Source of the DNA: a virus
Reading direction: 5' to 3' (one strand)
DNA: 64,000 nt
Virus record (IMG/VR): IMGVR_UViG_3300046804_003780
Shown: piece by piece, positions 4,709 through 7,316 of the stretch
Layout: each line of letters opens with the position of its first letter
Position numbering within the stretch: the stretch's first letter is position 1
Made by a program: the position numbers and the translations under genes
The notes under the pieces: model-generated
The model's database searches: none
The model's input: the letters and a program-made list of their open reading frames with translations, nothing else
What the model was told of the DNA's origin: nothing

Positions 4709-4726
4709 TTGTAACAGAATTGTCAT
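4709..4726 (+). promoter_or_regulatory. Pho box (PhoB-binding site) upstream of pstS
   Basis: TTGTAAC-AGAA-TTGTCAT: two 7-bp half-sites on 11-bp pitch matching CTGTCAT-N4-CTGTCAT; TAAATA follows at 4738-4743. Confidence 0.8.
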
Positions 4727-4786
4727 ACTACGGCCATTAAATATTTATTGCAAAATATAAATTTTCTTAAAAAGGAGACACACACT

Positions 4787-5812
4787 ATGAAAAAACTATT
4801 TGCAGTTTTATCTTTTGCAGTAGCAGGTATAGCAACAGCAGCAGAATTTACTGGCGCTGGAGCTACATTCCCATTTCCAATCTACGCTAAATGGGCGGAA
4901 GCCTATAAAGCACAAACTGGAATCGGCTTAAACTATCAAAGTATCGGTAGTGGCGGCGGCATTCGTCAAATCAAAGCAAAGACAGTTGACTTTGGTGCAA
5001 GCGACATGCCATTAAAGAAAGAAGAATTAGATAAAGAAGGTCTTGTTCAATTTCCAGCAATTATTGGCGGTGTAGTACCAGTTGTTAATTTAGATGGCAT
5101 ACAACCTGGTCAATTAAAGTTGACACCAGAAATAATTGCAAATATACATTTAGGTAAAATTACTAAATGGAATGATAAAGCTATTGCCGAAATTAATTCA
5201 GGTGTAAATTTACCTGCATTAAATATCACAGTTATTCATCGTGCAGATGGTTCAGGCACTACATTCATTTGGACAAACTTTCTAAGCAAAGCTAATGCAG
5301 ACTTTCAAAAGATAGTAGGCGAAGGTACTGCTGTTAAATGGCCAGTTGGTGTAGGTGGTAAAGGTAATGAAGGTGTTGCAGCACAAGTACAACGCATTAA
5401 GGGTAGTTTTGGTTATGTAGAATATGCATTTGCTAAAAGAAATAAAATTGCACATACACAATTAAAGAATCGTGACGGTAATTTTGTACAACCAGATGAT
5501 AGTACATTTAAGGCAGCAACAGCAAATGCAGATTGGGTTAATGCTCCAGGAATGTATTTGTTACTAACATGGCAAAATGGAAAAGATACTTGGCCAGCAA
5601 CAGGTGCTAGTTTCATCTTAATGCATAAGCAACAAGCAGATGCATTAACAGGTCGTGCAGTTCTCAAATTCTTTGATTGGAGTTACAAGAACGGCAGTCA
5701 AATGGCATCTGAATTAGAATATGTACATATGCCACAAGATGTAATTAAGCTTGTTCAGGAAAATTGGAAGAAAGACTTCCGTGGTCCCGATGGTAACGCA
5801 ATTTGGAAATAA
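4787..5812 (+). CDS. pstS: phosphate ABC transporter periplasmic binding protein PstS
   Basis: AAGGAG SD then ATG at 4787. Signal peptide; motifs TGAGATFPFPIYAKWA, YQSIGSGGGI, VDFGASD, RADGSGTT, GKGNEGV. Confidence 0.97.
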   Translation: MKKLFAVLSFAVAGIATAAEFTGAGATFPFPIYAKWAEAYKAQTGIGLNYQSIGSGGGIRQIKAKTVDFGASDMPLKKEELDKEGLVQFPAIIGGVVPVVNLDGIQPGQLKLTPEIIANIHLGKITKWNDKAIAEINSGVNLPALNITVIHRADGSGTTFIWTNFLSKANADFQKIVGEGTAVKWPVGVGGKGNEGVAAQVQRIKGSFGYVEYAFAKRNKIAHTQLKNRDGNFVQPDDSTFKAATANADWVNAPGMYLLLTWQNGKDTWPATGASFILMHKQQADALTGRAVLKFFDWSYKNGSQMASELEYVHMPQDVIKLVQENWKKDFRGPDGNAIWK

Positions 5813-5822
5813 GGAAAATTAA

Positions 5823-7229
5823 ATGAAAACTTTTACAAAAATAGCATTAAGCCTTGCATTAGCTTTTAGTATTCCCGCATATGCTGATGAATATCTAGAC
5901 ACTTTAAAAATTTTAAAGGATAAAGGCATTTTGACACAGACAGAGTATGATGTTAAAGTCAAAGAATATGAAGATAAAGCAGAAAACAAAAAATTTTCTG
6001 ATCAAAGGATAGATAAAGATGTCAGCGACAACAACAAATACAGAATCGCAAGAATCAACGACGGATCTGTATCAGAAAACGGAATCGGACTTAAATCTAA
6101 GGATGGGAACAACACTCTCAACCTTACGGGTAGACTACATATGGACTATCGTCAGTACGACCCCACTTATGGTGCAGGTCAAACCACAGATTCGTATCAA
6201 AATGTAGCTGAAGTTCGTCGTGCTAGATTTGGTGTTCGTGGTCAGTTTGCTAAAGACTTCAAGTATCAATTACTCGCCAACTTTGGTAATGATGCTGGTT
6301 CTAGTGCAACTACGACAACTGCTGATGAAATGTGGGTAAACTATGCTGCCAATCCTGAAATGCAATTTCAGTTTGGGTTATTTAAAATGCCATTTAGTTT
6401 AGAACAGTTAACAAGTTCAAATAATATAGATTTTATGGAGCGTAGTCTTATTGGACAAACCGAAGGAGAATTTATTCCTGCAAAAGAAACAGGCTTTATG
6501 ATTCATGGAATACCTAAGCCTGGTTTACTCTATCAAGTAGCAATAAGTCGTGGTCGTGGTAACAAAGATGCAGCTAACGACGGCTTTGACTATATCGGTC
6601 GTGTTGTAACTAACATTGCTGAATTACAAGGTAGTAAAGCTTATGTGTTACACTTAGGTGCAGCATATAGTACAGGTGAGATTAAAGGCGGTGTTACACC
6701 AGCAAGTGGTAGAACAGAATCACGCAGTCAATCAGCCTGGTTCACAGGTCCAGCGTTAAGTGGTGCTACTACAAGAACACGCCAAGGTCTTGAAGCGGCT
6801 TTTGCATATAATGGATTGAAGTTACAGGGTGAACAGTTCCAATTTAATTATGATCCTACTACAGGTAAAGATCAGAAAATAAATGGATACTATGTACAAG
6901 CTTTGTATAACTTGACAGGTGAAAGTCACAACTATAAAGACGGTATCTTCAATTGGATCAAACCTAATAATCCAACTGATAAGGGTGGCCGCGGTGCATG
7001 GCAAGTTGGTGTCCGTATGAGTGAGTTTGATGCTAGTGATATTGCTGTAGTTGCTGGCAAATCTAATCGTGCCACTGCTATGACCTATGGAGTCACTTGG
7101 TTCTGTACAGACAATTTACGCTTCATGTTAAACTATGTAGACACAAAGTTTGACAGTTTAGTAGGAAGTTCCGGAAGTCGTGTGACTGGCGATAAAGCAG
7201 TTATGTTTAGAAGTCAATTAAGTTTTTAA
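5823..7229 (+). CDS. phosphate-selective outer-membrane porin, OprO/OprP family
   Basis: Signal peptide, VRRARFGVRG, GLFKMPFSLEQLTSSNNIDFMERS, YNLTGE, terminal Phe; 10 bp after pstS. Confidence 0.9.
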   Translation: MKTFTKIALSLALAFSIPAYADEYLDTLKILKDKGILTQTEYDVKVKEYEDKAENKKFSDQRIDKDVSDNNKYRIARINDGSVSENGIGLKSKDGNNTLNLTGRLHMDYRQYDPTYGAGQTTDSYQNVAEVRRARFGVRGQFAKDFKYQLLANFGNDAGSSATTTTADEMWVNYAANPEMQFQFGLFKMPFSLEQLTSSNNIDFMERSLIGQTEGEFIPAKETGFMIHGIPKPGLLYQVAISRGRGNKDAANDGFDYIGRVVTNIAELQGSKAYVLHLGAAYSTGEIKGGVTPASGRTESRSQSAWFTGPALSGATTRTRQGLEAAFAYNGLKLQGEQFQFNYDPTTGKDQKINGYYVQALYNLTGESHNYKDGIFNWIKPNNPTDKGGRGAWQVGVRMSEFDASDIAVVAGKSNRATAMTYGVTWFCTDNLRFMLNYVDTKFDSLVGSSGSRVTGDKAVMFRSQLSF

Positions 7230-7242
7230 ATAAAAAACTTTC

Positions 7243-7271
7243 AAAAAAAAGGCACTTAAGTGCCTTTTTTT
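7243..7271. terminator. bidirectional intrinsic terminator after the porin gene
   Basis: AAAAAAAAGGCACTTAAGTGCCTTTTTTT palindrome with A/T tails. Confidence 0.85.
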
Positions 7272-7276
7272 GTGGT

Positions 7277-7294
7277 TTGTAATGGTATTGTCAT
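7277..7294 (+). promoter_or_regulatory. second Pho box, upstream of the plcP-like gene
   Basis: TTGTAAT-GGTA-TTGTCAT on 11-bp pitch; TAAATA follows at 7306-7311 with the same 11-nt spacing as at pstS. Confidence 0.78.
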
Positions 7295-7316
7295 ACAATA
7301 TATTCTAAATATTAAT

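Follow-up and report, generated by a model that had tools for sequence, protein, structure and literature searches.

The middle promoters of phage T4 combine a MotA box with sigma70 remodelled by AsiA. In proteobacterial PhoB promoters of the E. coli pstS/phoA type, an 18-nt Pho box, made of two 7-nt direct repeats with an 11-nt periodicity, replaces the -35 element, and the only activation route of PhoB that we know of runs through region 4 of sigma70. The late promoters of T4 are activated by the gp45 clamp via gp33, which, like region 4, grips the tip of the beta flap; the clamp is located immediately upstream, where the DNA shows no sequence conservation (PMC7892883). The T4 late motif, TATAAATA, spans positions -13 to -6, and phage Aeh1 uses CTAAATA from -12 (PMC1524935). 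Control of phage genes by the host PhoBR system has been described for genes of cyanophage S-PM2d, with no late-core coupling described there (PMC10976474), and for pstS and phoA of P-SSM2, as cited in that paper. Here, we analyzed a 64,000-nt stretch of viral DNA (IMG/VR record IMGVR_UViG_3300046804_003780; hereafter, the window), in which two Pho boxes of the proteobacterial type each precede a TAAATA element of the T4 late type, in front of genes for phosphate acquisition and of a putative lipid-remodelling gene.

Both components are textbook matter, Pho-box promoters on the one hand and T4 late promoters devoid of upstream elements on the other; their fusion was not found in the literature searched, and publications on Pho boxes with late promoters, on pstS of pelagimyophages and jumbo phages, and on the promoters of PA5oct gave no description of the box-N11-TAAATA design. 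The preliminary description of this DNA had proposed that a host-type Pho box is held at a fixed distance from a phage late-type core instead of a sigma70 -10 element, and this structural claim is strongly supported by the comparative data and controls reported below. Its functional claim, a promoter in need of both host phosphate starvation and the late sigma and using a non-canonical contact, stays at the level of inference. We read the two sites as composite promoters that would be gated by PhoB and transcribed by the gp55 holoenzyme, with a probability of about 0.5.

The sites share with proteobacterial PhoB promoters the architecture of the box, its predicted position at -40 to -23, and the presence of pstS and other phosphate-acquisition genes downstream. 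With T4-type late promoters they share the TAAATA core, a gp55 homologue, the same core before virion genes, and a predicted start 6 nt after the core, but the phage sites have a specific activator site at a fixed distance upstream, and the genes behind them are host-derived metabolic ones. As in cyanophages, phosphate genes borne by the phage would be placed under the host phosphate two-component regulator through Pho boxes in the phage DNA; the cyanophage boxes, however, are of the cyanobacterial type and lie at varied distances, whereas the box found here is proteobacterial and locked to a late core. The arrangement also recalls T4 middle promoters, which likewise have an activator site instead of a -35, at a set distance from a -10-type element. 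Those promoters, however, pair a phage activator with the host sigma, whereas at the present sites a host activator would work with a phage sigma.

Two Pho boxes stand 11 nt upstream of late-type cores

The elements of the two promoters are the following:

4709-4726, + strand: Pho box 1, TTGTAAC-AGAA-TTGTCAT, two 7-nt direct repeats with a 4-nt linker; predicted span -40 to -23
4727-4737, + strand: spacer 1, 11 nt; length invariant and sequence free across relatives
4738-4743, + strand: TAAATA late-type core 1, within TAAATATT (4738-4745); predicted positions -11 to -6, with a start near 4749
7277-7294, + strand: Pho box 2, TTGTAAT-GGTA-TTGTCAT
7295-7305: spacer 2, 11 nt; sequence unlike that of spacer 1
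7306-7311, + strand: TAAATA late-type core 2, within TAAATATT (7306-7313); 11 nt 3' of box 2 and 5 nt 5' of an ATG

The coordinates and sequences agreed with the preliminary description, which had placed both boxes exactly 11 nt 5' of TAAATATT and had stated that the spacers are equal in length and different in sequence. Both boxes matched YTGTMAY-N4-YTGTMAY with no mismatch, and the full pattern YTGTMAY-N4-YTGTMAY-N11-TAAATA, with up to one mismatch allowed, was found at two places in the window and was absent from all 100 dinucleotide-preserving shuffles. Loose Pho-box matches alone were at chance level in the window, and the bare 8-mer TAAATATT was not over-represented either (10 seen vs 17.8 expected), so the signal lies in the combination of the two elements and in their geometry.

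A shared TAnnnT at the usual sigma70 distance had not been seen before and was not seen by us: the hexamers 10 nt from the two boxes are TTAAAT and CTAAAT. Hexamers in this 10-nt register (N10) are devoid of A-11, and TAAATA in the 11-nt register (N11) is devoid of T-7. A TATATT does lie 4 nt 3' of box 2, where it could be read as part of a sigma70-like TTGTAA-N16-TATATT; this candidate for a working -10 was dropped because promoter 1 has no counterpart and only the closest relatives retain it.

The core of promoter 1 is included in a palindrome, TAAATATTTA (4738-4747), so that TAAATA can also be read on the minus strand (4747-4742), where it faces an 84-aa open reading frame (ORF; 4428-4682, - strand) for which no function is known. 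A minus-strand transcript from this palindrome would cross Pho box 1, and PhoB binding might therefore block it. The palindrome is retained in the closest relatives only.

The spacing is invariant in related viruses

Eighty viral loci were gathered by PstS homology, and the start codons of pstS and of the esterase gene found behind the second promoter were placed by tblastn. In all 34 distinct protein-anchored upstream regions having a box (up to 2 mismatches), TAAATA was located at exactly 11 nt. These 34 promoters contained 30 distinct spacers, with a mean pairwise identity of 0.41. The preliminary description had staked its proposal on conservation of the spacing in relatives, and when this was examined the 11-nt distance proved invariant.

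When viral contigs were scanned with gaps of 4-24 nt allowed, the gap was 11 nt in 63 of 121 cases among the matches listed; among the same matches, the other gaps had 1-6 each, except for 21 nt (14) and 22 nt (5), the latter being explained by the tandem boxes that occur in some relatives. A scan with one exact box alone returned mostly chance matches in coding DNA. Its commonest hexamer was TAAATA at offset 11 (7 cases), and no TAnnnT peak was detected at offset 10.

The pooled set comprised 93 distinct promoters of the box-N11-TAAATA design, 85 of them with a downstream ORF, which encoded PstS in 41 cases and the esterase in 35 (together, 76/85). At three loci (L199, L228, and L274), the design was followed by a third gene family, of about 333 aa, unannotated and with no Pfam hit, whose conserved leader of 30-74 nt looks structured.

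The core is probably not an ordinary sigma70 -10 element

The pstS promoters of the 80 closest bacterial loci are of the type box-N10-TAnnnT, with hexamers such as TACAGT, TAAAGT, TAGACT, and TACAAT. In 401 Burkholderiales genomes, a box followed by TAAATA at 4-24 nt was matched twice, never at 11 nt, and the reversed-pattern control gave the same number. In G408, a complete relative of 359 kb, a TAnnnT stands at N17 of 56 of the 404 TTGACA elements (TATAAT, 29; TATACT, 8; TACAAT, 5), and TAAATA stands at N17 or N18 of none. Similarly, the porin promoters of relatives read TTGACA-N17-TATAAT, TATAGT, or TACAAT. Collectively, the three controls, that is, the bacterial pstS promoters, the Burkholderiales scan, and G408, indicated that these phages combine -35 elements with TATAAT but Pho boxes with TAAATA. 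The phage sites differ from proteobacterial PhoB promoters in having a spacer of 11 nt, not 10, and an invariant TAAATA in place of a variable TAnnnT. Several results thus speak against an ordinary sigma70 -10, and TAAATA is probably something else here.

These data bear on the simplest alternative, a plain host-type Pho promoter at which phosphorylated PhoB (PhoB~P) recruits sigma70 by its sole known route, region 4, while TAAATA or YTAAAT acts as an unusual -10 resembling the late motif and gp55 is uninvolved. Such a promoter would have its box in place of the -35 and 10-11 nt from the element, as bacterial promoters do, but none of the 401 Burkholderiales genomes scanned yielded the design, and T4-like phages with a near-identical pstS are devoid of it. 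The N10 register retains T-12 and T-7, often with a TG upstream; yet each register misses one critical base, and all six bases of TAAATA are invariant in 34/34 promoters, whereas the sigma70 -10 elements of the same phages and of bacteria vary within TAnnnT. This alternative agrees with the established regulation of cyanophage genes by host PhoB (PMC10976474), but not with the finding that TTGACA is never paired with TAAATA in G408. On balance, we regard a plain Pho promoter as unlikely.

TAAATA is the late motif, and the predicted geometry has the box end at -23

The preliminary description had TAAATA before at least ten other genes. In the window, 11 genes had it within their upstream 60 nt, where 1.8 would be expected (6-fold); these 11 include baseplate wedge, portal, and virion-protein genes. 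In G408, the top 7-mers upstream of genes were ATAAATA (61 genes, 14.7-fold enriched) and CTAAATA (21 genes, 8.5-fold). The distance from TAAATA to the start codon showed two peaks in this genome, one at 16-21 nt and the other at 4-7 nt (31/113 sites, mode 5); the latter suggests that many late mRNAs are leaderless, starting 6 nt after the core as in T4. Leaderless late mRNAs seem common in the jumbo-phage lineage of G408 (loci L408-L425), at about a quarter of the TAAATA sites. At the esterase gene, TAAATA-N5-ATG was found in the window and in 12 of the 13 close relatives; it is also the commonest gap of the wider set (18 of 35). The A of the esterase ATG is the predicted +1, and the esterase mRNA would therefore be leaderless.

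The base preceding TAAATA (-12) was T in 58 and A in 9 of the 93 Pho-coupled promoters, and A in 67 of the 113 ordinary sites of G408. The Pho-coupled promoters are, because of this difference, not plain copies of late promoters, and their preference for T or C at -12, where A is usual, also separates them from T4 late promoters. The stricter statement that A never precedes TAAATA was discarded, as it is true of the close relatives only. A T or C at this position may mark a weakened, activator-dependent core; alternatively, the T may belong, as T-12, to a sigma70 hexamer read in the N10 register.

In bacterial promoters, a sigma70 hexamer at -12 to -7 with a 10-nt spacer makes the Pho box end at -23. 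In the phage, TAAATA at -11 to -6 with an 11-nt spacer makes it end at -23 likewise, as the extra spacer base offsets the one-base difference in the placement of the element between the two sigma types. This geometry fits PhoB being held at the same position relative to the core polymerase in both cases.

Alternatively, one and the same element might serve two overlapping promoters acting as an OR gate, in which sigma70 with PhoB would serve early under phosphate starvation, and the gp55 holoenzyme late, regardless of PhoB. The requirements of sigma70/PhoB would then set the spacing and those of gp55 the sequence, which accounts for a fixed spacing and an invariant TAAATA with no new protein contact. 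The T bias before TAAATA would fit the T-12 of the N10-register hexamer, but avoidance of the A that late promoters prefer at -12 would weaken the PhoB-independent late use, and sigma70 would need a hexamer devoid of A-11 or T-7. Moreover, no other overlaps of sigma70 and late promoters were found in G408, where 0/404 TTGACA lie 17 or 18 nt before TAAATA, the distances at which a -10 would be shared. We therefore judge an overlapping dual promoter to be rather improbable.

The design is restricted to phages with a long gp55

The sigma factor encoded in the window is the following:

48454-49350, + strand: long gp55-type late sigma, 298 aa; phrog_12791 3e-69; PDB 7d7c_F; T4 gp55 fold, Z 14.8

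That the window encodes a gp55-like sigma had been noted before, and the profile, the PDB entry, and the fold match agree on it. Its full-length relatives are found in the jumbo phages Phosso, PA5oct, PBECO4/121Q, RaK2, and GAP32. A structural model from a shallow alignment (pLDDT 52) was discarded, and one from a deep alignment (A2; pLDDT 87) was used. In this model, a helix at 11-27 together with residues 190-290 matches T4 gp55/sigma region 2 (7d7d_F: Z 14.8, rmsd 2.9, 119 residues aligned), and residues 28-190 are predicted to be an inserted segment of about 165 aa, located, in terms of topology, where sigma70 carries its non-conserved region. The predicted model contains nothing resembling region 4. 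Foldseek and VIA-align searches with it matched the sigma-region-2 part only, the insertion not having been searched as a separate domain. Some homologues of the long gp55 reach 500-660 aa and match in three stretches; inteins or additional insertions could account for this.

All nine related records that have box-N11-TAAATA and a detectable gp55 carry the long form (51-85% identity, full length). Where pstS has another promoter (four records, of classes B and D and of one further type), the phage is in every case T4-like, 155-172 kb in size, and equipped with a short gp55, although the PstS of the short-gp55 T4-like records is 83-90% identical to that of the window. The promoter therefore follows the transcription apparatus of the phage and not pstS, the design being restricted to long-gp55 records despite near-identical PstS proteins.

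The T4-like relatives G415, G410, and G414 have a gp33-like ORF. None was detected in the long-gp55 records G408 (complete), G406, and G420, but gp33 is small and fast-diverging, so this does not amount to absence. The 165-aa insertion of the sigma sets this system apart from T4, and a lack of gp33, were it real, would do so too. A search for AsiA (PF09010) gave no match and was uninformative, as its controls were silent too.

The T4-like, short-gp55 phages have pstS promoters of their own. In class B (L008, L009, L016, L021-L028, and L079), TTGTGAC-N4-CCGTTAC is followed by a conserved TTTTAGTAGTCTAAC, and in class C (L015, L044, L053, L063, and L080) four half-sites are followed, after 15 nt, by TAGATA and TGTGATATTGT. 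The class B element was considered as the late motif of its own lineage and rejected, since G410 likewise has ATAAATA for its late motif and shows no recurrence of the class B element.

The box binder is presumably the host PhoB

No protein with a Trans_reg_C domain (OmpR/PhoB type) was found in five related phage records, two of them complete. PhoB is present in the betaproteobacterial genomes examined, and the phage box is of the same type as the bacterial pstS Pho boxes. Since the related phage records encode no protein of this type, the binder of the box is presumably the host PhoB.

These results also bear on the idea that the box modulates the late promoter in some other manner: PhoB~P at -40 to -23 could prevent transcription by gp55 or set its timing, for instance by getting in the way of an upstream co-activator, or a phage factor yet to be named could bind the repeats. 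The DNA immediately 5' of the T4 late core is covered by the clamp and gp33 (PMC7892883), and a protein bound there could interfere with them; repression of pstS under phosphate starvation, however, makes little biological sense, and a weakened core suggests dependence on an activator. As for a phage factor, the binder of the box has been assigned from sequence, but the related records encode no OmpR/PhoB-type protein, the box matches those of bacterial pstS genes, and the genes downstream serve phosphate acquisition. We consider such modulation very unlikely.

Genes behind the promoters and identity of the phage

The features around the two promoters are the following:

4787-5812, + strand: pstS, periplasmic phosphate-binding protein; Pfam PBP_like_2 1.7e-34; NCBIfam NF008171, 420 bits (cut-off 339)
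5823-7229, + strand: phosphate-selective porin, OprO/OprP family; Pfam Porin_O_P 3.7e-54
7244-7271, + strand: intrinsic terminator hairpin, a 12-pair stem followed by a T run; closes the pstS-porin unit
7317-8126, + strand: LpxH/PlcP-like metallophosphoesterase; Pfam Metallophos 2e-12; LpxH models score under their cut-offs
8238-8948, + strand: family-2 glycosyltransferase, 3' of the esterase gene; Pfam Glycos_transf_2 4.5e-20

The functions encoded behind both sites (PstS, OprO/P porin, and LpxH/PlcP-like esterase) fit phosphate acquisition or sparing. A Shine-Dalgarno sequence, GGAG, precedes pstS at 4774-4777. The porin gene, which has no separate promoter in the window, begins 10 nt downstream of pstS and is presumably co-transcribed with it. 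At the corresponding pstS-porin junction (5813-5822 in the window), several relatives (L018, L029, L034, L036, L055, L066, L067, and L078) carry a canonical TTGACA-N17-TATAAT promoter, which lies inside an inverted repeat, possibly an operator or a hairpin. The glycosyltransferase gene, judged by its position only, likely belongs to the second (esterase) unit.

The phosphate-uptake operon is captured, its genes being host-derived; the nearest cellular relatives of the window PstS are from Betaproteobacteria, with about 69% identity. A permuted two-piece tmRNA gene (11242-11643, - strand; tag peptide ANAANDEVFALAA, ARAGORN) is consistent with a betaproteobacterial host, and, on the basis of the PstS relatives and this gene, the host is likely a freshwater betaproteobacterium. 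The window comes from a T4-related phage, taken to be a giant freshwater one; it encodes the gp55-type sigma, gp46/47, the gp6 wedge, the gp5 hub, and the portal, and related metagenomic contigs are up to 359 kb long. A giant ORF of 5284 aa (21664-37518, - strand) lies amid the tail and baseplate genes.

Discussion

The proposed mechanism would operate as follows. At each promoter, a proteobacterial Pho box, the site of the host PhoB, would lie at about -40 to -23, and a T4-type late core, TAAATA, at -11 to -6. RNA polymerase with the long gp55 would read this core, which would be weakened by a T or C instead of A at -12, and phosphorylated PhoB, bound alongside the core, would raise initiation. 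Expression of the pstS-porin operon and of the PlcP-like esterase/glycosyltransferase unit would then require both phosphate starvation, as sensed by the host, and the presence of the late sigma. The contact of PhoB might be the gp55 insertion, which occupies the place of the sigma70 non-conserved region, or a free beta flap. Three steps carry this proposal, and we infer all of them: that PhoB binds the box, that gp55 and not sigma70 reads TAAATA, and that PhoB activates.

Several points weigh against the PhoB-gated gp55 promoter. Because PhoB works via region 4 and the gp55 model is devoid of it, a new activation mechanism must be assumed. The N10 register gives YTAAAT, with both T-12 and T-7, and in about 60% of pstS-type promoters a TG lies 3-4 nt 5' of TAAATA, like an extended -10 in that register; a sigma70/PhoB promoter would also show a fixed distance from box to core. 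The mostly T at -12, as opposed to the A of ordinary late sites, makes the Pho-coupled promoters a distinct subclass. In addition, the link between promoter and gp55 type effectively compares two lineages only, and the T4-like relatives also use an ATAAATA late motif yet do not couple it to a box. Finally, the reading was drawn from sequence.

Taken together, the data suggest, short of proof, that a nutrient signal of the host feeds directly into a phage-specific form of RNA polymerase. More tentatively, and at somewhat less than even odds, PhoB~P would directly activate an RNA polymerase carrying a region-4-less gp55, probably also devoid of gp33, through a new contact with the insertion or the beta flap. 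If true, a cellular response regulator would here be seen for the first time to activate a T4-type late holoenzyme in a class-II-like manner, and host nutrient state and phage programme would be joined in an AND gate common to a large group of uncultured freshwater jumbo phages.

Activation of the gp55 holoenzyme by PhoB would give a second mode of action to a regulator thought to be limited to sigma70 region 4. T4-type late transcription could then be regulated gene by gene, and auxiliary metabolic genes could be made conditional on both host physiology and the stage of infection. Since lake viromes often contain the design and 8000 matches were obtained for the long gp55 family, the finding would bear on how phosphate limitation shapes freshwater phage-host dynamics.

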